Below, in pieces: positions 796 to 54,444 of a stretch of DNA of 64,000 nucleotides. Within the stretch, counting starts at the first letter, position 1. Every line of letters begins with the position of its first letter. Position numbers and translations under genes: made by a program. The DNA lies in the IMG/VR virus record IMGVR_UViG_650716086_000003, positions 4,081 to 68,080 of that record; one strand, 5' to 3'. The DNA comes from a virus. Lineage: Duplodnaviria; Caudoviricetes. Below the pieces are notes generated by a model. The model made no database searches and was not told the DNA's origin. It was given only the letters and a program-made list of their open reading frames with translations.

Positions 796-2622
796 ATGAC
801 GCAATCCTTCAATGAGTTTGCAGATGTGCTCGGCCCCAATCCCTCCCAGGAGGGGCAGGGCACGCCCGCGCCGTCGAGTTTCAGGGTGCTCGATGGCGCG
901 GGCAAGGAATCCGCGATTGCCGGTGAAGCCTACGAAGGCGCCAGCCGCTTCAGCCGCGAACTCGCGATGTGGCAGCCGCACAACCGCACGGCCGATCAGG
1001 ACATCCTACCAGCCAAGCGCATTTCCGATGCCCGTATCCGCGACATCCTGCGCAACGACGCCTATGTCCAGAGCGGCGCCGCGCTGCACAAGGACAACAT
1101 CGTCGGCGGCGCCTTCCTCCTGAACGCCAAGCCGCACACCAAGGTGCTGTTCGGCAAGGCGGACGATGTTTGGGAAGAAGAGTTTCAGGAAGAAGTCGAA
1201 GCTAAATTCACGCTTTGGGCTGAGTCCGATGCGAATTGGGTGGACGCTTCGCGCCGCAATAACTTCACAATGCTGGTTCGCCAGGCGATCGGGACGTATC
1301 TCGCGTGCGGTGAAGTGATCGCCTCAATCGAATGGTCACGTGAAGAGCGCGATTTCCGGCCGTTCAACACGTCGGTCCGCATGGTTGACGTTGATCGTCT
1401 GTCCACGCCTCCGACTCTGAAGGCAAATCCATACATCATTGGCGGCGTCGAAGTCGACCAACGACACATTCCTATCGCCTATCACATCCGCAAGGCACAT
1501 CCGCGGGACGTTTATTACGTCCAGAACTACGAATGGGCGCGCATCGACGCGAAAAAGCCGTGGGGTCGCCCACTGTTCATCCACCTGTTCGAGCAGATGC
1601 GTGCCGGCCAGACCCGCGGTATGTCCGATATGGCAGCCGGGATCAAGGAAACGCGCATGGCGCGCGAGTTCCGCGACGTGATGCTGCAGAACGCGGTGGT
1701 CAACGCGACTTACGCGGCCGTTATCGAATCCGATATCGCCAACTCGGCGGAAGTCTTCGCGAAACTCGGCGCAGGCGCCGACAGCATCGACGAGGCAATC
1801 AGCGAACTCCTTGGCGCGCAGATGAGCGCGATCTCGGAATACGCGAAGGGCGCCGATCAGTTGAAGCTCGGTGGCGTGCGGATCCCGCATCTGCTCCCCG
1901 GCTCGAAACTGCATATGCAGCCGGCCGGCCAGGGTGGTCCGCTTGGCACGGAGTTCGAACAGTCGTTGCTGCGGAACATCGCCGCTCTGCTCGGCGTCTC
2001 GTATGAGCAGCTTTCGAAGGACTACACCGAGACCAATTACTCGTCGGCGCGCGCTGCTCAGACCGAGACCTGGAAGTTCATGGTCTCGCGCAAGAAGATC
2101 ATCGCCGATCGCTTCGCGAACATCGTCTATCGCAATTGGCTCGAAGAGGCGCTGAACAAGGGCGTGATCACATCCATGCCGCGCCGCATGGGTGTCGATA
2201 CTGCTTGGCTCTACCAGCCCCTCGCCATGGAAGCGATTACGCGTTGCGAATGGATTGGCGCTTCGCGCGGTCAGATCGACGAACTGAAGGAAACTCAGGC
2301 TGCGGTTCTTCGTCTGAAATACGGCCTCTCGACCTACGAACAGGAACGCGCCCGCCTCGGCGGCGACTGGCGTGCAGACATCCGCCAGATCGCTCGCGAG
2401 AAAAAGGCCATGGAAGATGCCGGCCTGCCTCACGTCAGTACGGTTCAGGACAACTCGATCAACGCAGCTTCCGGCGAAAAGGACGTGAGCGAGTCCAGCA
2501 ATCCCAGCGCTCAGAGCGCTCACAGCGAGTTTGCAGACATTCTCGGTGGAGAATTGAACGGCAGTCTTTCTAACGACTTCCGTGACGCCGTTCATAAAGA
2601 TGAGGAAGACGATGCCGAATAA
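796..2622 (+). CDS. Portal protein, lambda family
   Basis: 608 aa with YEGASR, RN..Y..G, GVE.D, RPGQ.RG-like, GVSYEQLSKDY...NYSSARA and IDELKE motifs. Confidence 0.92.
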   Translation: MTQSFNEFADVLGPNPSQEGQGTPAPSSFRVLDGAGKESAIAGEAYEGASRFSRELAMWQPHNRTADQDILPAKRISDARIRDILRNDAYVQSGAALHKDNIVGGAFLLNAKPHTKVLFGKADDVWEEEFQEEVEAKFTLWAESDANWVDASRRNNFTMLVRQAIGTYLACGEVIASIEWSREERDFRPFNTSVRMVDVDRLSTPPTLKANPYIIGGVEVDQRHIPIAYHIRKAHPRDVYYVQNYEWARIDAKKPWGRPLFIHLFEQMRAGQTRGMSDMAAGIKETRMAREFRDVMLQNAVVNATYAAVIESDIANSAEVFAKLGAGADSIDEAISELLGAQMSAISEYAKGADQLKLGGVRIPHLLPGSKLHMQPAGQGGPLGTEFEQSLLRNIAALLGVSYEQLSKDYTETNYSSARAAQTETWKFMVSRKKIIADRFANIVYRNWLEEALNKGVITSMPRRMGVDTAWLYQPLAMEAITRCEWIGASRGQIDELKETQAAVLRLKYGLSTYEQERARLGGDWRADIRQIAREKKAMEDAGLPHVSTVQDNSINAASGEKDVSESSNPSAQSAHSEFADILGGELNGSLSNDFRDAVHKDEEDDAE

Positions 2623-3934
2623 TCTGAATCCGATCATGGCACGCTTCGATCAGGCGCCGGCTCTCGTTTCTCCGGAAATGCAAGGACTCTTCGAGGCTTC
2701 CCTGCACGAGACGGCCAAGATGACGGCTCGCCTCGAAGCCGATACGACCGCTCCGCAGATGCACAACGGCGACGACTTCTGGTTTGCCGACAACGATTGG
2801 CGCTCGATGCTGCGCCCGTACAAGGTGAAGGACGGCATTTTGCAGATCCCGGTCAAGGGTGTTCTGCTGCACAACTTCCCCTACCAGTACGGCGGGTACG
2901 CGACCGGCTATTTCTATATCTGGAAAGCGTTCGAGCGCGGCCTCGCGGACGGCAACGTTAGGGGTATCGCCCTCATCATCGACTCCCCCGGTGGCGAAGT
3001 CGCCGGAAATTTCGATCTCGTCGACAAGATGTTCGCGCACCGCGACGAAAAGCCGGTCCGCGCATACGCGATGGAGAGCGCATATTCGGCAGCCTACTCG
3101 ATCGCCTCCGTCGCAGATTCGATCACCGTTTCGCGAACTGGTGGCGTTGGCTCGATCGGCGTCGTCACGGCCCACGTCGATGCAAGCAAGATGGTCGACG
3201 AGATGGGTTGGAAGGTGACTTTCATCTTCGCCGGCAAGCACAAGGTCGACGGCAACCCCTACGAAGCGCTGTCGCCGGAAGTCAAGGCGCGCATACAGGC
3301 TCGCATTGACGAACTCTATTCAGTGTTCGTGTCCACCGTGGCACGGAACCGCGGCATGGATGAAAAGGCAGTTCGGGATACCGAGGCTCTGACATTCACT
3401 GCTTCGCAAGCAACGTCGAACGGGCTGGCCGATCATATCGGCACGCTTGACGACTCCGTTGCCGCTTTCGCGGCAGAACTGTCCCTAGATGAAGAGGATG
3501 AAACCATGTCTGGACAGACGAAGAACGAAACGGCGGTCGATCAGGCTGCCATCGAGACGGCTCGTGCCGAAGGTTTTGCTGCCGGCAAGGCTGAAGGTGT
3601 GAATGAAGGTGCAACGTCCGAGCGCGCTCGTATCAGTGCAATCGTCAATTCGGAAGCCGGCCAGGCTCGCCCGAAGGCTGCCCTGAAGATGGCGACCAAC
3701 GACAAGTTCTCGGCCGTCGATGCCGACGCGATCGTTGAAATGCTCGCCGACCTTCCGGAAGAGAAGGCCGAGACGCCCGCCAAGCAGGAAAACGCCACCG
3801 GCAACCAGTTCAAGGAAGCCATGGATACCTCGGAGAATACCGATCTCGGTACTCCGGGCAACGGCGAAGGCGGCGAGATGACTCGGGCTCAGCGCGCCGT
3901 CACGCTCGCCAAGGGTCCGCGCAAGGCCGCGTAA
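2612..3934 (+). CDS. Prohead protease, S49 (lambda gpC/SppA-like) family, with C-terminal scaffold domain
   Basis: IDSPGGEV, AYSAAYSIAS (catalytic Ser) and GGVGSIGV motifs. Start placed at ATG 2612. Confidence 0.9.
   Translation: MPNNLNPIMARFDQAPALVSPEMQGLFEASLHETAKMTARLEADTTAPQMHNGDDFWFADNDWRSMLRPYKVKDGILQIPVKGVLLHNFPYQYGGYATGYFYIWKAFERGLADGNVRGIALIIDSPGGEVAGNFDLVDKMFAHRDEKPVRAYAMESAYSAAYSIASVADSITVSRTGGVGSIGVVTAHVDASKMVDEMGWKVTFIFAGKHKVDGNPYEALSPEVKARIQARIDELYSVFVSTVARNRGMDEKAVRDTEALTFTASQATSNGLADHIGTLDDSVAAFAAELSLDEEDETMSGQTKNETAVDQAAIETARAEGFAAGKAEGVNEGATSERARISAIVNSEAGQARPKAALKMATNDKFSAVDADAIVEMLADLPEEKAETPAKQENATGNQFKEAMDTSENTDLGTPGNGEGGEMTRAQRAVTLAKGPRKAA
3506..3934 (+). CDS. Nested in-frame scaffolding protein (Nu3-like)
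   Basis: GAGGA Shine-Dalgarno before the in-frame ATG at 3506. The product is Ala/Glu-rich with an ERARISAI motif; same arrangement as lambda C/Nu3. Confidence 0.65.
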   Translation: MSGQTKNETAVDQAAIETARAEGFAAGKAEGVNEGATSERARISAIVNSEAGQARPKAALKMATNDKFSAVDADAIVEMLADLPEEKAETPAKQENATGNQFKEAMDTSENTDLGTPGNGEGGEMTRAQRAVTLAKGPRKAA

Positions 3935-3978
3935 GCCGCGCAACCTAAAAATCAACCTTTTGTTGAAAGGATACTGAA

Positions 3979-4419
3979 ATGGCTACCTTCACCCCAAACA
4001 ATGATCCTTGGAAGGCCGGTTTTCCGGGCCAGTCCTCGGATCAAGTAAACCCCGTTGCTCAGGGGCTCATCGTCGGCGAAACCCCGGCTGTCGTCATGGA
4101 AGACATGACGCTCGCTGCCAGCCAGACGATCGCCGCGATGTACACGCCGGTCGGCCTGGACGGTTCCGGCAATCTTGTCCCGGCCGTTTCCGGCACCACG
4201 CAGGCCATCGGCATTCTGATGCGGCCGATCACCAGCGGCGCATCGCCGATTCAGGGCGTCGAAGTCCTGCGTCAGGGCTGCCTGAACATGGACCTGATCG
4301 CCTGGCCGGCATCCTACGACACCGACGAGAAGAAGCTCGAAGCCTTCCGCGGTGCTCCCACCCCCACTGCCATCGTGGTCCGCAGGGTCCGCGCTGGCGC
4401 CATCGTAGCACAGCCGTAA
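3979..4419 (+). CDS. Head decoration protein (lambda gpD-like)
   Basis: 146 aa between protease and capsid, with an AIGIL motif and an AAGGA RBS. Confidence 0.8.
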   Translation: MATFTPNNDPWKAGFPGQSSDQVNPVAQGLIVGETPAVVMEDMTLAASQTIAAMYTPVGLDGSGNLVPAVSGTTQAIGILMRPITSGASPIQGVEVLRQGCLNMDLIAWPASYDTDEKKLEAFRGAPTPTAIVVRRVRAGAIVAQP

Positions 4420-4457
4420 GCCGTGGCTTTGGCGAACTAGAAAAGGACATAGCAGTC

Positions 4458-5549
4458 ATGGCAATCGACCTGTGGTCTCCACTGGATCTGTTCGAACTCC
4501 GTCAAGACGACCGCATGAACGCGCTCCCGTCTTGGATTCTGGACACGTTCTTCACTCAAACGCACTTCTCGCAGGACAAGTCGATCAAGTTCGCCGACCT
4601 GCCGGAAAACGATCGCTACCTGGCGCCGTTCGTACTGCCCTACGATCAGGGTAAGCCGCTCGACATGCGTCGCGGCTACTCGGTTGAAGAGTTCATGCCG
4701 GCTTATATCAAGCTGAAGAACGCCGTTCGCCCGAGCGAAGCACGCATCCAGGACCCGCGCGTTCTCCTGTCCGGCCGGCAGCCGTCGCTCGTCGAGAAGT
4801 TCGACCAGCGCGTGGCCGAGATCACGGAAGCCCATCTCCGTGCAATCCGCGTCCGCGAAATCTGGATGGCCGTTCGTGCCTTCGTCGATGCCAAGGTTCA
4901 GATCGACTACGATCGCGACCAGGGTGCGGCGAATCCTTCCGTCCTGCTCGACTTCGGCCGTGACCCCGGTCAGACCGTCACGCTCAGTGCGGAATACTGG
5001 AACGATCCGGCCTCGGACATCCTTGGCGATCTCGAGTCTTGGATGACCACCATGTACCTCGCCAACGGCGGCGGTACCGCGAGCATGCTGATCGTCGGTG
5101 CGCAGGTGGCTCCGTTGTTCAAGAAGAACACCGGCATCAAGGCGGCTCTCGATCGTAACTACCGTGGCAACGAGAGTGTCCAGATCGACCTCGGCATCAT
5201 GCGGACCGAACGTCCGCTGCAGCGCATCGGTCAGTTGGACAACAGCCTCGAAGTGTTCTCCTACAAGGACACGATCGACATCCCGAACGGTGCGGGCGGA
5301 AAGACCAAGATCGACCTTTTCAACGAGAAGGACATTCTGCTGGTCGCTCCGGGTGCAAACGGCGTCCGTGCCTACGGCGCGATCTACGATGTCGATGCCA
5401 TCGAAACCGGTCAGGCTCTGTCGACCGACATCTTCGGCAAGATGTTCAAGACCGACGATCCGGGCGAAAAGTTCGTCATGCACCAGTCCTCGCCGCTGCC
5501 GATCCCGCTGTATCCGAACCGAACCTTCAAGGCGCGCGTTCTGGCCTAA
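4458..5549 (+). CDS. Major capsid protein, lambda gpE family
   Basis: 363 aa from ATG 4458 (AAGGA RBS). LAPFVLP, PAYIKLK and QSSPLPIP motifs. Confidence 0.9.
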   Translation: MAIDLWSPLDLFELRQDDRMNALPSWILDTFFTQTHFSQDKSIKFADLPENDRYLAPFVLPYDQGKPLDMRRGYSVEEFMPAYIKLKNAVRPSEARIQDPRVLLSGRQPSLVEKFDQRVAEITEAHLRAIRVREIWMAVRAFVDAKVQIDYDRDQGAANPSVLLDFGRDPGQTVTLSAEYWNDPASDILGDLESWMTTMYLANGGGTASMLIVGAQVAPLFKKNTGIKAALDRNYRGNESVQIDLGIMRTERPLQRIGQLDNSLEVFSYKDTIDIPNGAGGKTKIDLFNEKDILLVAPGANGVRAYGAIYDVDAIETGQALSTDIFGKMFKTDDPGEKFVMHQSSPLPIPLYPNRTFKARVLA

Positions 5550-5556
5550 CAGCCGC

Positions 5557-5582
5557 GAGGCGGCGGGTTCGCTCGCCGTCTC
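5557..5582 (+). terminator. Stem-loop after capsid gene
   Basis: GAGGCGGCGGG-TTCG-CTCGCCGTCTC, with a UUCG tetraloop and only a weak U-tract. Confidence 0.55.
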
Positions 5583-5639
5583 ATTCAACCGCTTGGGGAA
5601 TATGATCTAAGTTTGACCCTAGAAAGAAGGATTGGCCCA

Positions 5640-5981
5640 ATGGCTACCGTTACCACATACGCAATTCACTCCATCGGCCGTCGCGTCAAGGACGGCAAGG
5701 TTCTCGTGCCGGCATCCACCCGCGAACGTCCGAGCGTCTTCGAGGCAACCGCCGAAGAATTCGAACGCCTCGAAAAGCTCGGCGCCGTCCGCAAGGCAAC
5801 GAAGGAAGAGATCGCAATCGCCAAGGTGCAGTCGAATGAAGCAGCCGACGCTCCCACCACCGCGGAAAAGATCGCAGCTTCGTCCACCGAAACCAAAGCA
5901 CCTGCTTCCGGCGCGGACGGTGACCCCAAGGGAGCCCCGAAAGGCGCCGCAAAGGCTCCTGGCAAGGACGAAGAAATCTGA
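5640..5981 (+). CDS. Small head-associated protein (FI position), Ala/Lys-rich tail
   Basis: ATG 5640. Position immediately after the capsid gene, as in lambda-like and Chi-like phages. Confidence 0.6.
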   Translation: MATVTTYAIHSIGRRVKDGKVLVPASTRERPSVFEATAEEFERLEKLGAVRKATKEEIAIAKVQSNEAADAPTTAEKIAASSTETKAPASGADGDPKGAPKGAAKAPGKDEEI

Positions 5982-6358
5982 TGCCATCTTTCCGTGACAT
6001 AAAGCGGAAAGCCCGTCGGGACGTGCATGCGCACATGCGCGTCCCGGCACTTTATCTCGCCACGCGTGAAGCAATTCCGGTGGCTTGTTTTGTGCGCGTC
6101 CACACGAAATTCGCAGCCCTCGGCGACATGAAGGGCACCAACTTCAACTACGCTGAGCGTGAAGAAGAGACTCCGAAGCTGATCATCTGGCGCGAGGAAA
6201 TCCCGCAGCCGGCGCGTAACGCGATCATCTCCGTCGAGACTGGTGAAGCCTATCAAATCGATTCCAGTGCGCCCGCCGACGACTTGACGATCACCGTCAA
6301 CGTGACCGCCATGGCCGCCGAAGACACAGTGGGGCTTCCTGTTCCGGAGTCCACCTGA
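5981..6358 (+). CDS. Head-tail joining/closure protein (FII-like)
   Basis: 125 aa, synteny, translational coupling. Confidence 0.6.
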   Translation: MPSFRDIKRKARRDVHAHMRVPALYLATREAIPVACFVRVHTKFAALGDMKGTNFNYAEREEETPKLIIWREEIPQPARNAIISVETGEAYQIDSSAPADDLTITVNVTAMAAEDTVGLPVPEST

Positions 6359-7472: not shown

Positions 7473-7521
7473 AAGGGTTTTCAACTGTTTGGTGATTTAA
7501 CCAACAAAGGAGTGAATATCG

Positions 7522-8310: not shown

Positions 8311-8339
8311 CCCTCCATCCCTGAAGGAGATCAGGCAAC

Positions 8340-27902: not shown

Positions 27903-28145
27903 TTAACCAAGAATGTCGCCGAAGTCATCATAAATGTTTGTCAATTGCGAAAAATTGGGGTCCGGTCCTACTACACGATCCGTTCGAGCGTAGTAGACAA
28001 TTCCCCGTTCATCTTCTGCAACCAAGTGTTCGTCGTTCGGATGCTTTATCACCTTGACGCCAATGGGGTTTTTCATCCAGGCGTCAAGAAGGATGATTCG
28101 GCTATTCAACGGCCAGTTGGTGGACGGGGTGACCGCGACCTTCAT
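27903..28145 (-). CDS. Hypothetical protein ending in DDFGDILG
   Basis: 80 aa, coupled start/stop, C-terminal motif. Confidence 0.65.
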   Translation of the reverse strand: MKVAVTPSTNWPLNSRIILLDAWMKNPIGVKVIKHPNDEHLVAEDERGIVYYARTDRVVGPDPNFSQLTNIYDDFGDILG

Positions 28146-28456
28146 TGAAGTGTTTTTCCTCTCAACAAATTGTGATCGGGCCGACAGTCGGCGGGCTCGT
28201 CATCCACACTTTCTCCGAGTTCATCCACACTTTCGTCACAATCGTCGCCGTCCAAGAAATCGGCATAGGTCGAGAGAGCCGCTTGCAACTCCCCGTCGCT
28301 CTCGATCGTGGTGGCTACGTCGTAATCCGTGCTTGCGTCATTGTCGGTTGTCAGCATGATGACCAGATTCTCGTTTGGCCCGAGGAAATGCTTGAGCTGA
28401 TCAACCAAAGATTGAATATCGATTCCTGCGCCTTGGTCTTTATCCGAGAATATCAT
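28142..28456 (-). CDS. Acidic hypothetical protein (start uncertain)
   Basis: Fills the gap between coupled genes. ATG 28456 overlaps the upstream stop region. Confidence 0.45.
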   Translation of the reverse strand: MIFSDKDQGAGIDIQSLVDQLKHFLGPNENLVIMLTTDNDASTDYDVATTIESDGELQAALSTYADFLDGDDCDESVDELGESVDDEPADCRPDHNLLRGKTLQ

Positions 28457-29624
28457 CGAAATGCCCTCCACTAACAGTTGAATTACCGCATACGCGGTGC
28501 CCGAGTATATCGTCAAAATCTCCGAGTAGATTGCGTCCAAGAAGATTGTCAGCCGCTTGCTTAACGGATTGCATACGATCTTCGGACGGCCTTCGGAGCG
28601 GCCGGTATTCGGTTACGTTCGAGCGTCCGCGCCAGATCACCCAAATCACGTCCATGAGCGGGCTCTTGCCTCGCTCTTTCTCAAGGAAGGACGGCCGCCA
28701 GGTGAGGGGGCACACATACGCAGGAGGGAATTTTTCGAACAACTCGACGCGGCTCGCCGCATGCCAGAACTGACTTTTGAGCAGCATGGCGACGTTCGGA
28801 GTGATCGAGAGCGCGTGCCCGATGAACTCGGTTGCGACCTTGAAAGGGGGGTTGGTGATGATCCATTCCGGCGAAATCAACTGCTTGGCCGTGAGAAAGT
28901 TCACACCGCCTGCAATGAAACTCGTCTTGCGGATGTCAGTCGACCAAACGTCGTGGCCGTTCACTTCCATGACGGCAGCCATGTCACCTTCGCCAGCGGC
29001 CGGTTCCCAAATGCTCGTACCTTCCGGCAGATTCAGGAAGTCGAGGAGAACCTGGGTGACGTTGTACGGGCTCGGATAGAAGTCGGCCGGCTTGCGTTCC
29101 CATTTCTGCTGCGAGCCGATGATGGCCGATGCTACTGTGTGCATTCCCATGTCCGACAACCCGTACTCTTTCAAAATTTGTCTAATTCTCGGTGGAGTCA
29201 CGCCGAAACGGCGCGCAAGTGCGCTCTTGTTCTCTCCGCCGCGGTAGAGATCGGCGATTTCCCGGTAGTCCTCTGGACCAAGCTTCGGGTGACCGTTTCC
29301 AAGGCGCGGCGATCGATTGCGGCCCTTGGCCACCATGTCGTCGATGTTCTCTTGACGGCTGCCGGGAATGAGGTGGTTCGGATTGCAGCAAACAGGGTTG
29401 TCGCAGGAATGCCGAACGTGTACTTCGCCGACGAACGGCCCCTGGAAGTATTCGCAAATGAGTGCGTGTGCTTCGCGAATCTGCCCATACTTGCCCCCGA
29501 CGCGGAAATGTCCGTATCCGCTTTTGTGGATTGAACCCTGCCAAGGCCAACACTCATGCTCGCCTCGAATTTCGACCTTCGCCCAAAACCGCTCAAGGTC
29601 GCTTTCTGTCAGTCGAATCCTCAT
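28440..29624 (-). CDS. HNH endonuclease + HTH fused in frame to an N6-adenine DNA methyltransferase
   Basis: CWPWQG...GYG...HSCDNPVCCNPNHL (HNH); SALARRFGVT (HTH); DFYPSP, WEPAAGEG and IITNPPF (MTase). Two FDDILG motifs near the C-terminus. Confidence 0.8.
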   Translation of the reverse strand: MRIRLTESDLERFWAKVEIRGEHECWPWQGSIHKSGYGHFRVGGKYGQIREAHALICEYFQGPFVGEVHVRHSCDNPVCCNPNHLIPGSRQENIDDMVAKGRNRSPRLGNGHPKLGPEDYREIADLYRGGENKSALARRFGVTPPRIRQILKEYGLSDMGMHTVASAIIGSQQKWERKPADFYPSPYNVTQVLLDFLNLPEGTSIWEPAAGEGDMAAVMEVNGHDVWSTDIRKTSFIAGGVNFLTAKQLISPEWIITNPPFKVATEFIGHALSITPNVAMLLKSQFWHAASRVELFEKFPPAYVCPLTWRPSFLEKERGKSPLMDVIWVIWRGRSNVTEYRPLRRPSEDRMQSVKQAADNLLGRNLLGDFDDILGHRVCGNSTVSGGHFDDILG

Positions 29625-29950
29625 CCGAGGATGTCATCAAATTCACACGCAGCCGTCATAGGCTCGGCCGCGATCACGTTGGATTCGAGCAGGCGCATCA
29701 GCCGCTCGGAAGCAGGCACTGTCGCATCTGCACACTGGTCGACCACAGCCGTGCTCACATCACGGAGCAACGCCACGCGCGGACCCTCACCATCTCGGTC
29801 GGCATAGACCGTAATGCCGTACCAGGCGCCGGAAACTACAGCGCGATCAATCAGTTCGGCTAACGAACAACCACCTAGTGCAGCGATCGAGTGTTCGACA
29901 CCCGCAGGTTCCATTTTCAGGCTGTCAACTGTCGAAAGTGGCATAGTCAA
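29621..29950 (-). CDS. Hypothetical protein ending in CEFDDILG
   Basis: 109 aa, ATGA-coupled. Confidence 0.65.
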   Translation of the reverse strand: MTMPLSTVDSLKMEPAGVEHSIAALGGCSLAELIDRAVVSGAWYGITVYADRDGEGPRVALLRDVSTAVVDQCADATVPASERLMRLLESNVIAAEPMTAACEFDDILG

Positions 29951-30255
29951 CCCCCGAAAATATCATCAAAATCACCGGATAGTTGAACCGGTGGACACGG
30001 CTTCGCCGTCCGCCGTCTCTGCTTCTTTCTCGGTTCTGGTTCCTCGATCGGCGGCATGTCTTCGGTTCGCAATTCGGGCGGCAGGTATTTCGTTGCGTCT
30101 GCAATGACCGTGTCCAGGTCGGCCCCGTCAGCATGATCGCGGACGATAGCCATGTTCACCTGCCAGATCGCCGCAATCGCTTCATGCGCCACCTGCAGTT
30201 GGCTGCGCAGATACGCGTAAACCACCTGTTTTTCGACCTCATTGCTCATGATCAA
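29947..30255 (-). CDS. Hypothetical protein ending in GDFDDIFGG
   Basis: 102 aa, coupled. Confidence 0.65.
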   Translation of the reverse strand: MIMSNEVEKQVVYAYLRSQLQVAHEAIAAIWQVNMAIVRDHADGADLDTVIADATKYLPPELRTEDMPPIEEPEPRKKQRRRTAKPCPPVQLSGDFDDIFGG

Positions 30256-30256
30256 A

Positions 30257-30499
30257 TCAGCCTAGAATATCGAGGAAGTCGTCAGCGACCGCAGCATTGA
30301 TCGCGGCTGCCATCGTCGGCCCGCGGCCACGTCTCACGTGTACCGTCCGCGCCTTGGTCTGGACGAACGGCAAATCGTACTGGCGGCGCAAACTGCACTG
30401 CCACTGATCGCCGGAGTCCTGGCAAAGCCACGAGACGTACATTCCGCGCTCGCGCATGTGCTGAAGTGCTTTCACCAGTTCTTCAGCATCTTCCCTCAT
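30257..30499 (-). CDS. Hypothetical protein ending in DDFLDILG
   Basis: 80 aa, coupled. Confidence 0.65.
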   Translation of the reverse strand: MREDAEELVKALQHMRERGMYVSWLCQDSGDQWQCSLRRQYDLPFVQTKARTVHVRRGRGPTMAAAINAAVADDFLDILG

Positions 30500-30711
30500 C
30501 AGAGCACACCGTTGAGGAAGTTGATGCCGCGCGGAGTGATGACGAGCGTGCCGGTGTTACCGTTGTCGAACTTACGCGCCCATTTGGCATGGCCGACGCT
30601 GACCAGAACACTGGCCGGTCCATACGACACGGACTTGAAAACACCCTTTTCGCCGGCACGCTTCAGTTCGTCGAGCAGAGCCCGTTGAGGCATAGAGAGC
30701 TTGATCGACAT
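30499..30711 (-). CDS. Hypothetical small basic protein
   Basis: 70 aa, coupled on both sides. Confidence 0.6.
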   Translation of the reverse strand: MSIKLSMPQRALLDELKRAGEKGVFKSVSYGPASVLVSVGHAKWARKFDNGNTGTLVITPRGINFLNGVL

Positions 30712-31016
30712 CAGACATCGTCCTCGTCGACTTCATCAGCGATCGGCGCCATGCCGAGGGCGATGAGATAGGTGTTCAGGATGCTCTCGAACTCGGTAAG
30801 CTCGTCGCCGTCCTTCTTGCGGCGAGCGAGCACGGCCCGAATGACCTTTGTGTCGAAACCCATCGACTTGGCTTCTCCGAACACATCTTTGATGTCGTCG
30901 GCGATCGTCTTCTTCTCTTCCTCCAAGCGCTCAATACGCTCGATGAAAGCTCGAAGTTGATCGCGAGCGATGCCGTGTGCGTCAGTGCCGCTACTGTTAT
31001 GCCCGATAGTTGCCAT
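30711..31016 (-). CDS. gapR: GapR/DUF2312 family nucleoid-associated protein
   Basis: [42 protein letters not shown]...RK matches the family signature. Start set at MATIGH. Confidence 0.9.
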
Positions 31017-31257
31017 TGCCGCTTTTTCCCTTGATGTAGCTGACGACATCGGGCACCGAGCGCGCGCTCGTGACCAGTTCGTCGTCGATATCGATGTTGA
31101 ATTCCTCTTCGAGCAGGATGACCATTTCGACGGCATCGAGACTGTCGAGTTCAAGCTGCTCAAAGGTGCTATCCGGCTGGATTCGTTCTGCCGGAAAGTG
31201 CTGGCAGTTCACCAGGGTGAGTTTCACCCGCTCGAAGATGTCCTGCTCAAGCTGCAT
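30997..31257 (-). CDS. Acyl carrier protein homolog
   Basis: 86 aa acidic protein with [26 protein letters not shown]; the phosphopantetheine Ser in DSLD is intact. Confidence 0.9.
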
Positions 31258-41179: not shown

Positions 41180-42451
41180 TTATTGGAGTTTGGCTAGGCT
41201 TGCAACCGTTACGGCAAGCCCAAATGCGGCCGCGCGTCCTATCGTTCCGGCATGCCAAAGCGAATAGAGCCCGAAACCGACGGCCGCAAGCGCGACCATG
41301 CAGAACAACAAAAGCACAATTTCCGGCTTGCCAAGCCGTTGCCATTCGAGCGCGGCGCCGGCTGGCGCTTCAACCAGTTCCGGCATTGGCGGCCGCTCAT
41401 CTTCCCGCAACGCACCTAACGGGCAATCAGGCAATGTGACTTGAACTGCACGGGCTGGAAACGGCCGGCCGGTCTCATCTATGCCGGAAAAATCGGCCTG
41501 CCCGATTGCCAATTCACGGGAATGGCGAACACGGAAAGCCAATTGCTCGCGAATGGCGGCCGGAACGTCATCAGGGTTTTGCGTGACGAAATAGACGCCA
41601 ACGCCTTTCGAGCGGATAAGCCGCGCGATTTGCTCAACTTTCCGCAATAGAGCCGGATTCGCGTCCTGGAAAAGTAAATGCGCCTCATCAAAAAAGAACA
41701 CGAGTCGCGGCCGCTCGATATCGCCGATTTCCGGCAATCGTTCGTACAGATCCGATAAGAGCCAAAGCAGGAACGCGCCATAAACGCGCGGGCTTTCGAT
41801 AAGCCTTTCCGCCTGCAGAATGGAAACGAGTCCGCCGCTTCTCAAATAACCCGGTAAATCAGGATCATCTGAAGGCGGAATCCCTGTGCCTTGACCTTGC
41901 TTTTCGAGCAATTCCGCCACGTCAAATTGCGGATTGTTGAAAAACCGGCTGGCACCTTGCGTTTCCAGGCGCAATAGCGTGCGCAAGATGACGCCAACGG
42001 ATGCGGCCGAAACCTGCCCGTATATCGCCGACACTGACTCCCGCGCTTGCTGCAGGTGATTCAGGACAAACCGCAAATGCGCTATGGTTTCGAGCGGCAT
42101 TGCATTGTCACGGGCAACCGCAAAAGCTATTTCGAGCGTTCCGGCTTGCACGTCAGATAGTTCTAGAGCCCGTGCCAGGATATCGGCGCCCATTGCCTGA
42201 ATAGGTACGTTTAGCGCCTTGCCTGAGCGGCCGAAAACATCCAAGAACGTAACAGGACATGAGCGGGAAAGCGCGGCTATATCGCCTTTTACGTCCGATA
42301 TGAAAACTGGAACGCCAGCTTGCGAGAATGACTCGGCAAGCTTTTGCAGTGTCACGGTTTTGCCCGTTCCGGTTTGGCCAGTAATGAGCCCGTGGCGGTT
42401 GGCATACCTGAGCGGGATTCCGGCATTGCGGGAAAGTGCGGCGGCCGTCAT
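41180..42451 (-). CDS. HerA/FtsK-like ATPase, DUF853 family, with C-terminal TM segments
   Basis: YANRHGLITGQTGTGKTVTLQ (Walker A), DVKGD, FFFDEAHLLF (Walker B) and IRSKGVGVYFVTQNP. Confidence 0.88.
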   Translation of the reverse strand: MTAAALSRNAGIPLRYANRHGLITGQTGTGKTVTLQKLAESFSQAGVPVFISDVKGDIAALSRSCPVTFLDVFGRSGKALNVPIQAMGADILARALELSDVQAGTLEIAFAVARDNAMPLETIAHLRFVLNHLQQARESVSAIYGQVSAASVGVILRTLLRLETQGASRFFNNPQFDVAELLEKQGQGTGIPPSDDPDLPGYLRSGGLVSILQAERLIESPRVYGAFLLWLLSDLYERLPEIGDIERPRLVFFFDEAHLLFQDANPALLRKVEQIARLIRSKGVGVYFVTQNPDDVPAAIREQLAFRVRHSRELAIGQADFSGIDETGRPFPARAVQVTLPDCPLGALREDERPPMPELVEAPAGAALEWQRLGKPEIVLLLFCMVALAAVGFGLYSLWHAGTIGRAAAFGLAVTVASLAKLQ

Positions 42452-47584: not shown

Positions 47585-47623
47585 GTTGATTATATCCCCA
47601 AAAGGTTGAATTAGCAGGCGCAA

Positions 47624-48103: not shown

Positions 48104-48115
48104 ATCGGCGACTCC

Positions 48116-48307: not shown

Positions 48308-48345
48308 TTCGGCGACTCCGTTTCGTTGTGTGATTCAACAATAGC

Positions 48346-49021
48346 GTATGACGTGATTAAGTCAACCGTTTGTTGAATATGTCATCCAAGGATATCGCCG
48401 AATTCTGAGCTTTCCGCCTTGCCCGGATCGCTCGACTTGCTGACCATCTTTGCGGCCGCCTTCACGCGTTCCCTATAAGCGCGCTGGCGCGTGGCATGTT
48501 GTGTGCGGAATGCCTCATCATTCCAATCTCGTCGGTTTTTATCACAGTATACGCATGACGCATTGTGAGTGTACCGCACGCGCGTTCCGCACTTGTGGGG
48601 GTTATCCGCAATGTAGGTTTTCGAGCCTTGCGCCACGGCCGCCGCGCGCGCTCCTTTTGGTCTGCCTCTCGCCATCTCTGACTCCCGTCGGTTTGATTGG
48701 TCCATGGCTCACACTAGCGTGCACTGTGATTTAGTCAACCGTTTGTTGACTGTTGCGAGCTTGCGGCAGGGGATGAAACGGCAAGCGTGCACTGTGATTA
48801 AATCGCATTATGAGCATGCGTCGACGGGCTTGGATGAGCGTTTGAGCGTGACTGTGATTAAATGGGATTCGTGACTGTGATTAAATGATGTGTATGCGTG
48901 ACTTATTCCGATTAAATCACAGTCACGTTTTGAATAAGTCACGTCATACGTTTTCGACTTAATCACAGTGTCACGCGTGCATTTAATCACAGTGTCACGC
49001 GTCGACTTAATCACGTCATAC
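48346..49021. repeat. GTGATTAA/ACTGTGATTAAAT repeat family in both orientations
   Basis: Copies at 48719, 48787, 48848, 48871 (direct) and 48911, 48959, 48983, 49004 (inverted). Perfect 18-bp inverted pair at 48346-48363 and 49004-49021. Confidence 0.85.
48382..48675 (-). CDS. Basic Cys-containing protein ending in SEFGDILG
   Basis: GGGAG RBS; HKCG...CVYC; C-terminal motif. Confidence 0.7.
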   Translation of the reverse strand: MARGRPKGARAAAVAQGSKTYIADNPHKCGTRVRYTHNASCVYCDKNRRDWNDEAFRTQHATRQRAYRERVKAAAKMVSKSSDPGKAESSEFGDILG

Positions 49022-49054
49022 GTTGGCAATTCTTCAATGATATCAGGTCGCTAC

Positions 49055-49094
49055 GGGTCCTTCCGGGCAGTTTGACCTTCGGCGGGGGCGCCGA
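49055..49094 (+). other. Predicted cos site (cosQ-like GGGTCCT plus symmetric cosN-like segment)
   Basis: GGGTCCT at 49055-49061 matches lambda cosQ and is followed by TCCGG as in lambda (TTCCGG). TCGGCG-GGGG-CGCCGA dyad at 49079-49094. Confidence 0.6.
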
Positions 49095-49220
49095 GACCCC
49101 GGCACGCGCAAGTTTTCAAAAAGTTTTTCCCGCCTATCTTCGCCTGATCGGAGCGACTTGGAACGGAAATCCCGGATTCCGGGGGAAATTTCCTGCGAAA
49201 ACTTCAAAAACACGAATCTC

Positions 49221-49511
49221 CTTATCTCACTTGCCCTTCCTTGTCTCATCCTTATCTCACTTAACTACTTGTTTTCTTTATATAAAAGATCAGTGAGATA
49301 GATGAGATAAGTGAGATAAGGAGTTTCTACGTGTGCGATGCAGATCCCCTCCCGAGATGGAAGTGCGCCGACCTGCCCGGAAAATGTTCTGTCCCGTATT
49401 GGTGAAAAAGTCCTTGTCTTCCTTATCTCACTTATCTCACCTCGTTTTTAACGCGTAAAATCAATTAGTTATCTGAGACAAGGATGAGATAAGGAAACGC
49501 TCTGAGATAAG
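49221..49511. repeat. CTTATCTCA(C) repeat cluster around an AT-rich core
   Basis: About 11 copies in alternating orientation blocks; AT-rich segment at 49261-49290. Confidence 0.85.
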
Positions 49512-49898
49512 GAGCGTGCACATGGCGGATAATGGGTGAATCCGCGTGCACTGTGATTTTCCGAGGTCGGACTCCCGGCTGCGCGCATGTGAGACAGGTG
49601 ATTTCCATCTATGCACGTCACCACCCCTCAGACCTTGCTGCGCAGGCGGTGGAGGGTGATTTCCACAACAGTTCGACACCACCTCCTTGCAAACCCTCCA
49701 AAAGGTTATAGGGTGATTATGTCTCGCCACCGGGGAGCCAAACCGTTGCATGACGAGGTACAGCGTCCTTCGCGGGTACGCGCCAAAACAAAATGCCCAT
49801 TCCGAGTTTGTCGCCGGAATGGGCATTTTGCTGTGAAAAGAAATCCCGCTCGAAGGCGGGGCTCTGAGGGGGTCGGTGAAACCGATATCACCTGTCAC

Positions 49899-50102
49899 TC
49901 AACCGTCCTTTATCCGGTACCTGATGATGTCGAACGAGGGATCGTCGCACAGGTCGTTTACGTCGGCCCACCGCCAAACTAGGTCGTCGCGCAAACCCTG
50001 GATGACAGTCCCGTCGCGAAATACGACTTCTACCAGATCGCTTGCCGTCGGCTGAAGCGCCATTTTAGATCGATCGCCCTTGTATTCGTGCCAGTCACTC
50101 AT
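49899..50102 (-). CDS. Hypothetical protein
   Basis: GGAG RBS; SDWHEY.G...VEV.FRDG...W.W...DIIRYR motif. Confidence 0.65.
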   Translation of the reverse strand: MSDWHEYKGDRSKMALQPTASDLVEVVFRDGTVIQGLRDDLVWRWADVNDLCDDPSFDIIRYRIKDG

Positions 50103-50148
50103 TCACACTCTCCCTCTCAACGCGCCTCTTTCCCGTTTTGCAGATTCA

Positions 50149-50415
50149 TCACAGGTTCCCTTTTTTCCGCGATTCGAGATCCGGTAACTCCCACTCTATC
50201 AAACCTTTCCAAGGGTAGCGTATTTGGAGATCGATGAGAAAATCCGTCAGTTCCGGAGAAGCATCAATGATGACAAGTCCAGACCCGTAGGCCACCATGC
50301 TCTTGACGGTGCTTTCGATTGCTTCTTTTACGGACTCAAGATCACCGACATACCGCTGGCCGCTGCCCGTGACGACGTATACTTCGGCCATTGAGTGTTC
50401 TCCGTTTTCCGACAT
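50149..50415 (-). CDS. Hypothetical protein
   Basis: 88 aa, TAATG-coupled. Confidence 0.55.
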   Translation of the reverse strand: MSENGEHSMAEVYVVTGSGQRYVGDLESVKEAIESTVKSMVAYGSGLVIIDASPELTDFLIDLQIRYPWKGLIEWELPDLESRKKGNL

Positions 50416-50570
50416 TACAGGTTCCCTTCCTTGTCAGTGAACGCAATTCTGAGCAGCCCGCTCGTGCGCCAGAACCGTGGATAATTGATCCAAACGCATA
50501 GGCGGAACCACTGGAACTCCCAACTGGTCGCGCCGGGAAAGAAGATGGGGGATTTCGGCAACTCGCTCAT
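50415..50570 (-). CDS. Small Trp-rich protein (51 aa, not in ORF track)
   Basis: MSELPKSPIFF...KEGNL; coupled at both ends. Confidence 0.4.
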   Translation of the reverse strand: MSELPKSPIFFPGATSWEFQWFRLCVWINYPRFWRTSGLLRIAFTDKEGNL

Positions 50571-50872
50571 CACCGTCTCCCTTCTTTGCGCGGTTCGAGA
50601 TCCGGTACATCGATCTCGACCATCGTGCCGCCATGCCCTGGCAACGGTGCCCCTGGTGCGTAGCGGATAAGTCGGTTCCGGCGCAGGTATTGCGCGATCA
50701 ACCAGATGGAGGTGGCGCCGAGATACGGCCTGAACACGCTACCGCCTTTCCATCCTGACGCCCAATCCCCTTTCGACGCGCCACCAGATCGCGTCCGTGC
50801 AGGCGACGTGAAAAAGAATCTCCCGGCGCCGAGGGGTCAGCTTCACCTTGCCGTCAAGCACGAACCACGTCT

Positions 50873-51124
50873 TCATAGCTTGACGATCCCTTCGCAAGAT
50901 CGAATGAAGTAGAGTGCGCCTTGCACTTTTGGGTGCAGCTCAAGTGGATATCCGCAGACATTGCAATCGGCGCGGCCACCGGCTCGCGGCACGCCAACTT
51001 TTCCGTATCGGCCGTTCTCAACCTCGCCGTCGATGATCGCTTTGTCGTTGGGGTGGAGAAGATCGGGGTTGTTACCCCAATCGTCATAGCCGAGGCTGTG
51101 CAGGATCGAGGGGGAAGTCATCAC
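50873..51124 (-). CDS. Hypothetical protein with CxxC
   Basis: 83 aa, coupled. Confidence 0.55.
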   Translation of the reverse strand: MMTSPSILHSLGYDDWGNNPDLLHPNDKAIIDGEVENGRYGKVGVPRAGGRADCNVCGYPLELHPKVQGALYFIRSCEGIVKL

Positions 51125-51951
51125 TCACCTACCTTCCAATCCTGAGCCAGGATCTCATCAACCGTGAACGCGTGCCTCAGCAGATCGTCCGTCTCTTCGT
51201 TCATCGACCAGAACGCGCAGCCTTCAGCGCCGTCGAAATCGAACTTGATGTGAGGGTGGCTTTCCCGATAGGCGCTCTTCTGTTCCCACAGCATAAGGTG
51301 GAGAGCCCAAGCGAACGTGCCTTCCGGCGCCGACATTGCGGCCACTTGGCGGCGCAGGTTGTCGACCTCATAGGCGAGCGCCACATGCAGGTTGTCCGGC
51401 CCGTTCTGTTCGAACGCCGGCCAGGGTTCGCCGTTTCGTAAGCACTCCCATTTCCCCGGCGCCGTTTGCCGGATCGTGTACTTGCCGTGTTCGATGGTGA
51501 CTGAAACGAGATCGTCGACTATTTCGGCAACTGCCATATGCCCAACAGTATCGGCAGCAGAACGATCAAACTCGCCACCAGCAAACTTACTGCGGTCAGC
51601 ATCGGTCACATCCCTTTTCTTATCGGACTTTACGAACGATCGGCCGTAGAGAAATTTGTCGAAGGGTGTGACGCAATCGGTGCCATCCTGCGGATCGTTT
51701 TCCTCTAACCAAACGCGTCTTGCTTCCACGATTGTGTCTCGCACCGCGGTAAACCGATCGCAGTCAGCTTGACGTAGGGCTTCGGCCGCGGCGCCGTTAA
51801 ACCGTTCGATCAGAGACCGAGCTAATTCCTCCGGATTTTCGCCGTTGATGGTGACGCGGCAATTTCCGGCGTCGAACACGACAAAGCTGCGACCTTGGCA
51901 ATCGCCGATCTTATGCGGCTCGTCGGTGATACGGGCATAGTCTTTGGTCAT
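51121..51951 (-). CDS. Composite hypothetical protein
   Basis: 276 aa; C-terminal FAWAL...DILAQDW resembles small phage domains. Confidence 0.6.
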   Translation of the reverse strand: MTKDYARITDEPHKIGDCQGRSFVVFDAGNCRVTINGENPEELARSLIERFNGAAAEALRQADCDRFTAVRDTIVEARRVWLEENDPQDGTDCVTPFDKFLYGRSFVKSDKKRDVTDADRSKFAGGEFDRSAADTVGHMAVAEIVDDLVSVTIEHGKYTIRQTAPGKWECLRNGEPWPAFEQNGPDNLHVALAYEVDNLRRQVAAMSAPEGTFAWALHLMLWEQKSAYRESHPHIKFDFDGAEGCAFWSMNEETDDLLRHAFTVDEILAQDWKVGE

Positions 51952-52023
51952 CGCATTCCCTTTCTCAGGTTGGAATGCGATGACCGTATGCTCGAAAGGT
52001 GATTAAGTCAACAAAAAGTTGAA

Positions 52024-54444
52024 TTACAAATCATCGAGATCGTCGTAATCGTCCTCAATGTCGTCGACCGGCTGCGAGATATCTTCCCAAACCAGGTGCG
52101 AGTTCATGTAGCGCTCGAACGCGCGGCGGCACTCGCTCAGTTTCGGGAACACGTAGGTCCAGACTTGTTTCGCTCCCTCGCGGCGGCGCCTGTCCTCGAT
52201 CTGCGGCAGGATCTCGCGCATCCGCTTGCCGATCATGAACTTGACCAGTTCCTCGCCGTTGTAACGCTGGCGGCGCATCCATTCGGAATAGGCTTGGCGG
52301 AACTCGTCGCGATCGACCATGACGGGCTCTGTGAGCCATTGGCCGGCGTTTCCACCCTTGATCGAGTAGCAGGGAAATTCGAGTTCGCCGCTTTCGAGCA
52401 TGTCGAACCACCACTTGTCGATATTCTTCAGCCCCTGCACCTTCTGCTGCGCGAGCGCGGTCGTGTCGGGCACCTTGCGGACTTCGAAATCGGACAGATC
52501 GTAGTTCTGCAGGTAGTGGAGTAGGGCGGCCTGGCCGCCGTGATCGCGCTCATTGCGAATGGCCCGGAAATACCCGTGATCGTCCTTGCGGTGCGGCGAC
52601 ACATCGAGCACGAAATATCGGCCTTCGTCGGCGGTCGCCGGCACAACCCAATCTTCGTTGGACGACATGAACAGCCTGAGATAGCTGTCGACATGGAACC
52701 CGTTGAGCCCTTTGGGCTCGATGAACACCTTTTCCGATGTGATCAGGTATTTCAGCGAACCTTCCGCGTTCTTGTTGCCGGCCCAAAAACCTTCCTGCAC
52801 GTGCAGAAGCAAGCACTTCTCCTGGTGCGCGTTGAACTTGCCGACCAACTGCTCCTGATTCGCGATGACAACGTGATGGTGCGGGAACAGGCCGCCGATA
52901 TAGTCTGCGATCGTGTCCTTGCCAATACGCTTCTTGCCGCGGAGCACCATGGCCACGCCAGGCTTTTCGAATGGCCGCTGGATCATGTGAGCGAACCAGC
53001 CGAGGGCGTACCGATAATATTCCTCGTTGCCGCTGCAGATGACGTTTTTCAGGTGATCGAGGATGAGGCGGCACGAACCCTCCGAATCAGGCTCTACGGC
53101 GAACCCTTTCCAGTGATTGAAATAGCCGTCGCGCTCCTGACCTGGTGCGAACACGATGCCGTTCGGATACTGCCGGCGTAGCTTGTGGCGCATCCAGGCT
53201 TTCGACACCGGCTCTGTGGCCTTTTCCGTTGCCACGCGGTCATTCTCATACCAGTTATGCAGTTCGTTCGGCGTTCCGTAGGCCGTGGTGCCGTCCATGT
53301 GCTCGGTGACGATGACCGTTTTGCCGTTGACGAAGGCGACCGCGTGCTTGCGGTTCATCCGTCGCACCTTCGGCGGCACGTGCCCTAGATCGGCTTCCGT
53401 TTCCGACTTCTTCAGCTTCTTCGCGCGCTTCGTGTCACCGTGCTCGGTGCCTAGAATGTCGTCGAACTCGGTATCCTGTTCCGGCGCATCGAGATCGTCC
53501 GTTACATCGTCGTCCAGATTCTCGAACTCTTCGTCGAGTCGGGCTTCGCGCGCCGCGGTGACGAGCGTGGCCATCCGGACCGGCTTTTGTGAACCCTTGA
53601 ACGACTTCCAAACCCGTTTCTGGTCGGACTTGTCGAACTTCTCCGAGTCCTTCGAGAAGTCGAGCCAGAGTTTATAGCCGTGATCGGAGCCCCCGGTTTC
53701 GTGGTGCAGCGACATGCCGACCGTAAGCCAGCCGTCGCGATCGTCGCGCCAGTAATCCCGTGGCAGGTCGTCGAGCACTTCGCGGATCTCGTCGAGGGAT
53801 AGCCCGAGCGGCTTACTTCTCTCCGGATCGGCGGCCGCCCGTTCATCGTCGGCGTCCATGTCGAGCATTTTCGCAAGCACGTCGGAACCGACCATCGGCC
53901 CCAAACCGAGATCGAGATCGTCGAAGTCGAAAGGTGTCTGCCAGCGATAGGGCTTTCCGGTGTCGGGATGGATTGACGGCGGCATTGCGACCTGTTTGCC
54001 GGTGCCGAATAGATCGATTTCCCAGCGCCAATGCCATTTACCGTCTGCCGTCTGAATCTTCTCGCGGCTGTGCGCAAGCTTCTTCGGTGAGAACGGTTTG
54101 TCTGAGAGAATATAGAAGTGCCGGCTCTCGCCGCCCGAGCCGGAAATGACGGTTGGATACGTTTTCCAGACAGGGAATAGCTCGGTGAGCTTTTGCCGTG
54201 CCTCGTCGGCCAGTTTGGGGTCACGAATGTCTAGATCGATGACGTGGAGATAATCGTTGCCGATCTTCGACCACTTGCCGAGTCGCACACCGACGTTGTT
54301 GCCGTCCTTGTAGGTCTTTTTAAGCTGTTCGAGCGTCAGTACCGGCTTTGTAGACCAGTTCTCGCCGATCGGCCGCTTTTGTTTCGGATGCAGCCAGTGG
54401 ATTGCAAATCCGGCGCGAGCCAGGCGCTCAATTTGGTCGAGCAT
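52024..54444 (-). CDS. DNA primase-polymerase / helicase-like protein (Prim-Pol N-terminus, PriCT, C-terminal P-loop)
   Basis: KRP...W, NVGVRLG, VIDLD, SGSGG..RHFY, DGWLTVGMSLH, and LRGKKRIGKD plus GKFNAH. Confidence 0.88.
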   Translation of the reverse strand: MLDQIERLARAGFAIHWLHPKQKRPIGENWSTKPVLTLEQLKKTYKDGNNVGVRLGKWSKIGNDYLHVIDLDIRDPKLADEARQKLTELFPVWKTYPTVISGSGGESRHFYILSDKPFSPKKLAHSREKIQTADGKWHWRWEIDLFGTGKQVAMPPSIHPDTGKPYRWQTPFDFDDLDLGLGPMVGSDVLAKMLDMDADDERAAADPERSKPLGLSLDEIREVLDDLPRDYWRDDRDGWLTVGMSLHHETGGSDHGYKLWLDFSKDSEKFDKSDQKRVWKSFKGSQKPVRMATLVTAAREARLDEEFENLDDDVTDDLDAPEQDTEFDDILGTEHGDTKRAKKLKKSETEADLGHVPPKVRRMNRKHAVAFVNGKTVIVTEHMDGTTAYGTPNELHNWYENDRVATEKATEPVSKAWMRHKLRRQYPNGIVFAPGQERDGYFNHWKGFAVEPDSEGSCRLILDHLKNVICSGNEEYYRYALGWFAHMIQRPFEKPGVAMVLRGKKRIGKDTIADYIGGLFPHHHVVIANQEQLVGKFNAHQEKCLLLHVQEGFWAGNKNAEGSLKYLITSEKVFIEPKGLNGFHVDSYLRLFMSSNEDWVVPATADEGRYFVLDVSPHRKDDHGYFRAIRNERDHGGQAALLHYLQNYDLSDFEVRKVPDTTALAQQKVQGLKNIDKWWFDMLESGELEFPCYSIKGGNAGQWLTEPVMVDRDEFRQAYSEWMRRQRYNGEELVKFMIGKRMREILPQIEDRRRREGAKQVWTYVFPKLSECRRAFERYMNSHLVWEDISQPVDDIEDDYDDLDDL

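Follow-up and report, generated by a model that had tools for sequence, protein, structure and literature searches.

A six-residue peptide, F-x-D-[IV]-[LF]-G, recurs on otherwise unrelated proteins of a temperate Rhizobium-type phage whose genome is contained in the 68,080-bp provirus record IMGVR_UViG_650716086_000003 of IMG/VR. The stretch of DNA analysed, hereafter the window, comprises the 64,000 nucleotides at positions 4081–68080 of that record. Eleven copies of the peptide, referred to below as the tag, are distributed over nine proteins: the small terminase, the portal, a primase-helicase, a methyltransferase and five small proteins of 80–109 amino acids that bear it at their very end. 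The tag is almost certainly a real, selected motif, and it is likely to serve for docking on a single reader shared by all carriers. The explanation that best embraces the observations as a whole, in which we place somewhat better than even confidence, is that of a docking motif bound by one co-evolving receptor and linking DNA enzymes to the packaging machinery.

A six-frame regular-expression scan of the window returned 11 matches, ten of which are tag copies, whereas the remaining one falls in a HerA-type ATPase. All ten occurrences listed in an earlier note on this DNA, which had been made from the sequence alone, were reproduced at the same coordinates. The genome total is 12 matches, or 11 tags once the HerA-type match is discounted. 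The earlier note counted eight unrelated proteins: comparison with Pfam and PHROGs confirmed that the carriers are unrelated, the five small ones belonging to no family at all, but a ninth carrier, the small terminase, lies outside the window. The lambda-family portal, a protein of 608 residues encoded on the plus strand (796–2622), carries two tags, FADVLG at residues 8–13 (817–834) and FADILG at residues 579–584 in its acidic C-terminal tail (2530–2547). The other window copies are on the minus strand. An 80-residue protein (27903–28145) ends in DDFGDILG (27906–27923). An HNH-HTH-methyltransferase (28440–29624), recognized by the scan together with Pfam and PHROGs, has a terminal HFDDILG (28443–28460) and, 13 residues ahead of it, GDFDDILG at residues 370–375 (28500–28517). 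Three more small proteins are encoded next to it: one of 109 residues (29621–29950) ending in EFDDILG (29624–29641), one of 102 residues (29947–30255) ending in DFDDIFGG (29953–29970) and a second one of 80 residues (30257–30499) ending in DDFLDILG (30260–30277). The fifth, 97–107 residues long (48382–48705), displays an N-terminal AT-hook, RGRPKG, and pairs of cysteines, and terminates in SEFGDILG (48385–48402). In the PrimPol-PriCT2-D5 primase (52024–54444), TEFDDILG occupies residues 327–332 of the linker between PriCT-2 and the D5-type helicase (53449–53466). The small terminase starts with MDEFDDILG (genome positions 1794–1811, upstream of the window), which is succeeded by an AT-hook, KRRGRPKG (genome positions 1812–1850), and thus both DNA-packaging partners are tagged. 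In six copies the stop codon follows after no more than one residue, in keeping with the extreme C-terminal location described previously for six of them. The AT-hook-like RGRPKG is common to the N-terminus of the small terminase and the start of the 97–107-residue protein (window 48660–48680, minus strand), and a palindrome, TCAAC-N5-GTTGA, is located at approximately 48355–48382, a few bases past the stop codon of the latter gene.

Chance does not produce such a number of copies. Dinucleotide-preserving shuffles (n = 300) contained a mean of 0.10 copies and a maximum of one, and residue shuffles of all open reading frame (ORF) segments (n = 1000) a mean of 0.18 and a maximum of three; the scan against shuffled controls that the earlier note had proposed therefore sets 12 copies against 0.1–0.2 expected. 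Among the 720 permutations of the six tag positions the true order came top with 12 matches, followed by a runner-up with six that overlaps the true pattern, and the median was zero. Identity between copies amounts to 96% at codon positions 1 and 2 but falls to 38% at position 3; the 30-nucleotide flanks show 26–29% identity, which is the random level. As the first two positions are nearly identical and the third position and the flanks are not, selection acts on the peptide, and the proposal that conservation resides in the protein rather than in a DNA repeat stands. The arrangement of the genes could nevertheless evoke a DNA repeat, or a ribosome-binding or coupling signal for the next gene of a tightly packed operon: five tagged genes are adjacent, with stop and start codons that overlap or almost touch, and in one case extra GG codons generate a G-run 8–9 nucleotides before the next ATG. 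This notion, to which we attach practically no credence, is ruled out by the codon statistics, namely the variable third positions and random flanks, and is further contradicted by N-terminal and internal copies devoid of a downstream start and by the lack of a common Shine-Dalgarno-like word. A scan of IMG/VR for the exact string DFDDILG-stop gave one match, on an unrelated 392-kb contig, which corresponds to chance level, and a sequence search of the PDB with the methyltransferase tail gave none.

Among named phages, the closest is Rhizobium phage RHph_X2_30 (Casjensviridae), a phage of Sinorhizobium americanum whose portal is 91% identical. All copies of the tag are retained in the orthologues of X2_30 and of a 68%-identical relative, G001, while the adjoining linkers differ; the absence from orthologues that the earlier note named as a refutation is thus not seen. 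The N-terminal portal tag reads EFADVLG in X2_30 and DFTDVLG in G001, and the one in the C-terminal tail reads DFSDILG in both but is missing from more distant portals. The counterpart of the first 80-residue protein (27903–28145) ends in DDFADILG in X2_30, where it is an annotated coding sequence, and in DDFSDILG in G001. The methyltransferase of X2_30 is without the HNH part, but has kept its two tags (FEDILG...FIDVLGE), as has that of G001 (FDDILG...FHDILGA). The X2_30 counterparts of the 109-residue, 102-residue and second 80-residue (30257–30499) proteins end in SFDDILG, DFHDILGG and DDFLDILG, respectively. As for the 97–107-residue protein, a 71%-identical database homologue terminates in SEFEDILG after a different linker, the X2_30 version in GFDDVLG and a homologue in the Sphingopyxis prophage G005 in IESLIG. 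The primase linker tag is present in X2_30 and G001, and two further X2_30 proteins are tagged. The HerA-type match, FLDVFG at 42230–42247 (minus strand), is also kept in these two relatives; it is embedded in the HerA_C domain of a 423-residue HerA/DUF853-type ATPase (41180–42451) and, because it is inside a folded domain, is most likely unrelated to the tag, which makes it probably a structural coincidence.

Comparison of whole genomes of more distant relatives disclosed the tag in other spellings. In G005 it reads [LMIF]-x-[DE]-L-I-G and occurs on at least eight proteins, in G003 F-x-[ED]-M-L-G, in G002 ..D[LV][LI]G and in G004 DDF[DE]xLL with an optional Gly, whereas Pseudomonas phage PspYZU01 shows L[DE]DL[LI]G and Ruegeria phage DSS3-P1 [IV][DE]DLL[GSA]. 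The carriers of these variants include N6_N4, C5 and MT-A70 methylases, often with two tags in tandem, as well as a tyrosine integrase and a GIY-YIG nuclease; tandem tags end the methylases of G002 (MT-A70), G004 and G005 (N6_N4_Mtase). The same site of the primase is tagged in an Aquamicrobium prophage (DEDDLLGTP) and in PspYZU01 (ELEDLLGIP), and a 930-residue ORF of DSS3-P1 ends in SIEDLLG-stop. At least 17 of 22 small-terminase homologues open with an unambiguous tag of the F-x-D-x-L-G type, the rest with weaker variants, and in most of them an AT-hook comes after the tag. Likewise, 23 of 26 relatives of the portal exhibit hydrophobic-x-[DE]-hydrophobic-L-G within the first 20 residues or so. 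Many portal relatives contain a second small conserved segment, of the [VL]-x-V-P-A-G type, about 15–25 residues past the tag in an otherwise variable N-terminal tether. Judged by sequence, the tag system is a family-wide trait with lineage-specific variants in Casjensviridae-like phages of alpha-, beta- and gamma-proteobacteria. The description of the tag as a phage-private short linear motif is thus upheld as far as a protein-level motif on unrelated proteins is concerned, but not in its privacy, as variants extend across these phages.

The spelling of the tag changes in concert. Terminase and portal tags have 4.08 of six residues in common within a genome and 3.09 of six between genomes (permutation p about 5e-5, an optimistic value as some of the 13 lineages compared are related). 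Tags on unrelated proteins of one genome resemble one another more closely than do tags on orthologues from different genomes, and this joint change on non-homologous proteins is the chief argument for a single reader co-evolving with the tag.

The structural setting is consistent with an accessible peptide. In the AlphaFold2 (AF2) model of the small terminase, built on an alignment of 23 sequences, residues 1–45 have a predicted local distance difference test score (pLDDT) of 46–48 and no regular structure, and the folded body begins at about residue 50. In the portal model residues 1–73 and 556–608 score below 50, and short helices at residues 4–11 and 573–582 coincide with the tags and end at the Gly. 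In these models the tag looks like an amphipathic helix of one to two turns on a floppy tether, its positions 1, 4 and 5 being hydrophobic and its end capped by Gly. The AF2 monomers of portal and terminase display no confident folding back of the tag onto the protein's own body, and hence lend no support to either protein as its own receptor. The same result bears on the idea that no common reader exists and that each tag, as an acidic mimic of DNA, bends back over the DNA-binding surface of its carrier, an auto-inhibition comparable to that by the tails of SSB (single-stranded DNA-binding protein), T7 gp2.5 and HMGB1. Most carriers with a readable function do act on DNA, some harbour AT-hooks, and plain acidic tails are found on DNA-binding proteins of the same genome. 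This alternative is nonetheless improbable: it does not foresee that six fixed positions, including three hydrophobic residues and a Gly, are common to unrelated DNA-binding folds, nor that these positions change together within a genome, and no confident fold-back was modelled on the portal or terminase body.

In the mechanism that we propose, the tag would be a short linear docking motif consisting of an acidic lead-in followed by hydrophobic-x-Asp-hydrophobic-hydrophobic-Gly. The Gly would stop a one-to-two-turn amphipathic helix, and the tether, whether N-terminal, C-terminal or between domains, would be disordered. One common receptor would read all carriers through the tag, and its binding groove would co-evolve with the peptide, giving each phage lineage its own spelling. 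The range of carriers, which spans the packaging partners, the primase-helicase, methylases and small proteins of which some bind DNA, and in relatives an integrase and homing-type nucleases, led us to propose that the receptor may be a platform at the site of phage DNA replication and packaging. Such a platform would bring enzymes of DNA modification, replication and integration together with packaging proteins on one and the same DNA, much as the sliding clamp gp45 of T4 acts as a toolbelt or the T7 polymerase catches acidic tails. That the reader is a DNA-associated replication and packaging platform of this kind is a conjecture that we rate a little below even. More tentative, and on the doubtful side, is the broader notion of a co-evolving peptide address code that physically couples replication, modification, integration and packaging on one platform, its spelling possibly insulating co-infecting relatives from one another.

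Two other functions could be envisaged for a peptide of this kind. The tag might be a capsid-targeting signal with affinity for the scaffold or for the inner surface of the capsid protein; besides the portal, this would bring pilot or anti-defence proteins (methylase, primase, integrase, small DNA binders) into the procapsid, to be injected along with the DNA. No protein is tagged more constantly than the portal, and encapsulin loading peptides are located at the extreme C-terminus, as are most of the other tag copies. The lambda portal has IPTLLGP at the same place, within a leader of 22 residues that, according to the annotation, is no longer present in the mature protein. However, the small terminase, which acts outside the capsid, is as constantly tagged as the portal, and a helicase-primase of 806 residues and a methylase of 394 would be bulky cargo in a capsid for 68 kb. 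Moreover, the virion proteome of phage JS26, taken here as a relative rather than as an established tag carrier, contains proteins of the structural cluster only and no non-structural ones (PMC8754663). The tagged terminase and the relative's virion mass spectrometry thus disfavour the encapsidation signal that had been suggested among the possible roles, and we regard it as unlikely. The removed leader, encoded at positions 2687–2752 of lambda (gene B), reads MKTPTIPTLLGPDG... and shows hydrophobic-x-x-L-L-G-P at the place of the portal tag, a pattern which suggests that the N-terminal portal tag may be cut off on head maturation.

The second function is that of a degron or chaperone-adaptor tag, by which a host or phage protease or unfoldase would remove or remodel the carriers at a set time. 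The tag is terminal, exposed and on a disordered tether, and Lon, ClpXP and FtsH typically act on methylases, integrases and early proteins of phages. To our knowledge the acidic tag is unlike all known signals for ClpX, ClpA, Lon and FtsH. The portal and the terminase are required as stable proteins in fixed stoichiometry, one of the copies is internal, and the tandem tags of methylases fit avidity better than destruction. A protease adaptor, also put forward previously, finds no support here and is very improbable.

Returning to a docking motif with a single receptor, a number of observations weigh against it, one being that searches through GapR, clamps, phyletic patterns and host clients turned up no receptor. 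When all six frames of the complete 68-kb genome were searched with the hidden Markov models (HMMs) PF00712, PF02916 and PF00705 (E ≤ 1), no recognizable clamp of the beta, gp45 or PCNA type was found, and with zero matches a phage-encoded clamp is disfavoured as the reader, although a highly divergent clamp fold might hide among the unannotated proteins. The consensus of beta-clamp ligands, QL[SD]LF or QLxLxL, appears in none of the 11 copies or the lineage variants, which have no Gln, are acidic and space their hydrophobic residues differently. Salmonella phage Chi (NC_025442.1) is without any tag of the FxDILG type, and no phage gene has a pattern of presence and absence that matches the division between the tag-bearing genomes and tag-less Chi. 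The universal genes are the core ones, encoding terminases, portal, protease/scaffold, capsid, tail, Cas4-like exonuclease, primase and a divergent PolA. Two of their products, the large terminase and PolA, are without the tag in every case. In the window PolA (58799–60862) is likewise untagged and ends in ...FLSRVLQIN. A low-copy terminase or polymerase would, besides, be poorly suited as a hub to ten or more kinds of client. In two host genomes no excess of the tag was detected outside the prophage, which leaves no sign of clients native to the host: in the Sphingopyxis that harbours G005 a single [DE]LIG-stop match lies beyond the prophage, equal to the control level, and in the Aquamicrobium host DDLLG is confined to the prophage terminase and primase, malate dehydrogenase, an outer-membrane protein and off-frame hits. 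Finally, the 13 lineages of the concerted-change test are not phylogenetically independent.

As to the identity of the reader, a tentative candidate is a core protein of the phage that is itself untagged, for example the large terminase, the A-family polymerase or a helicase ring, and something else altogether is equally tentative; a protein of the host, for instance the beta clamp, is possible, if rather doubtful. The hints available point in opposite directions. The tagged integrase and early proteins suggest that the reader is already available early, in favour of a host protein or an early phage protein, whereas the lineage-specific spelling favours a fast-evolving reader encoded by the phage. 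Likenesses to the CheY-binding peptides of CheZ and FliM, the N-terminal helix of PopZ, the mobile loop of GroES and the C-terminus of type I secretion substrates were set aside, since at six residues one acidic amphipathic helix looks like another.

GapR was considered as a general reader and rejected, because PspYZU01 and AchV4 are tagged yet lack GapR. The phage GapR-like gene (PF10073, E 5e-31) lies at 30711–30995 on the minus strand of the window, encodes an acidic tail and is positioned directly upstream of five tagged genes; the order GapR, small tagged genes, methylase is also seen in G001–G005. The longer annotated GapR ORF (30711–31163, minus strand) overlaps a stand-alone acyl carrier protein gene at 30997–31257.

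The genome also encodes a second type of tail, an acidic run that ends in a C-terminal Ile, Leu or Val. It is found on a gp2.5-like SSB (57453–58133, plus strand; DDDDDI), an exonuclease subunit (58194–58799, plus; VDIDDI), a 183-residue protein (54974–55525, plus; GDEI), a protein in the position of lambda FI (5613–5981, plus; KDEEI), the primase (52024–54444, minus; DDLDDL) and GapR (30711–31163, minus; DEDDV). An acidic run with a terminal hydrophobic residue on replisome proteins, as is typical of T7, characterizes the tails of the SSB-like protein, the exonuclease and the primase, but not FxDILG. By analogy, the second type is probably the counterpart of the tails by which T7 gp2.5 and gp4 dock on the polymerase, and distinct from the tag. 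Many terminase homologues combine an N-terminal tag with an acidic aliphatic C-terminal tail, and the occurrence of both types on the primase and the terminase suggests two different docking sites. In phage Chi about ten proteins end in ..[DE][DE]DEV-COOH or similar, among them the primase, the Cas4-like exonuclease, an SSB-like protein, an SNF2 helicase (DDEE), the small terminase, a 97-residue protein encoded after the capsid gene and a PAPS-reductase-like protein. In the window, an eight-residue acidic motif that resembles the G004 spelling of the tag is seen as EFENLDDD in the primase linker (53506–53529, minus strand), 21 residues before FDDILG, and as EFDNLDDD at the C-terminus of the Cas4-like exonuclease (57385–57408, plus strand).

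Sliding clamps, SSB and the T7 replisome are known examples of hub-and-peptide wiring. A packaging machine, represented by the small terminase and the portal, and modifying, replicating and integrating enzymes under one and the same tag are not described in the literature searched, and a full-text search retrieved no paper describing the tag. If one reader exists, it would point to replication and packaging being physically connected in a large family of phages, provide a handle on the function of many small tagged orphan proteins and furnish a natural set of lineage-specific peptide–receptor pairs. As an annotation mark the tag confirms small ORFs as real genes and fixes their ends.

Among the systems with which the tag can be compared, the gp45-binding peptides of phages T4 and RB69, carried by gp43, DNA ligase, gp55 and gp33, are the nearest in both logic and letters. 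T4 gp43 ends in EKASLDFLFG-COOH and a loop of the ligase contains LDFLFD, the gp45-binding peptide LDFLF[G/D] being bound as an amphipathic helix (PMC6212786). In T4, too, unrelated proteins of DNA transactions bear a short acidic-hydrophobic peptide, either in a loop or at the very C-terminal end, and one reader serves many clients. F-x-D-I-L-G here, L-E-D-L-I-G in G005 and L-D-F-L-F-G in T4 gp43 are similar in hydrophobic spacing and final Gly, although this is a resemblance only. The phage described here differs from T4 in that no clamp is recognizable, the polymerase is untagged, the motif is often N-terminal and the portal and small terminase are tagged, neither being known as a client in T4. 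The T4 capsid-targeting sequence and the cargo-loading peptides of encapsulins are akin to the tag inasmuch as one short terminal peptide is borne by unrelated proteins, with a link to portal and HK97-type assembly; they depart from it in that the small terminase and replication enzymes are tagged here and no cleavage site is evident.

The bacterial SSB C-terminal tail (DFDDDIPF) resembles the tag in its hub-and-peptide logic, disordered ends and acidic lead-in, but in that case the peptide sits on the hub itself and needs the carboxylate of its terminal Phe. The earlier note's appeal to this tail as an analogy is weak, and a mimic of the host SSB tail, which would occupy the pockets in which replication and repair proteins of the host bind that tail, is highly improbable. 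The commonest form, DFDDILG, does look like the SSB tail, acidic lead-in included. Nevertheless, four of the 11 copies are N-terminal or internal and have no free carboxylate, the last residue is Gly and not Phe, relatives have Leu, Ile or Met instead of Phe at the first position, and the phage's own gp2.5-like SSB ends in DDDDDI; concerted change within a genome, furthermore, could not come from many different host pockets. The beta-clamp motif QL[SD]LF obeys the same hub-and-peptide logic, but begins with Gln and is not acidic. The T7 parallel is twofold: the replisome encoded here comprises a gp2.5-like SSB, a split exonuclease with an A-family polymerase and a primase-helicase, and terminal acidic-hydrophobic tails are common to unrelated proteins, as in T7, where the tails of gp2.5 and gp4 dock on the gp5 polymerase. 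In contrast to T7 tails, FxDILG is position-specific, helical in the models, ends in Gly, is often not C-terminal and is present on packaging proteins and methylases. Given the lack of a recognizable clamp, an untagged polymerase, the departures from the SSB and beta-clamp consensus sequences and T7 tails that match the other tail type, the tag emerges as a motif that resembles hub-docking peptides and yet stands outside each of these families.

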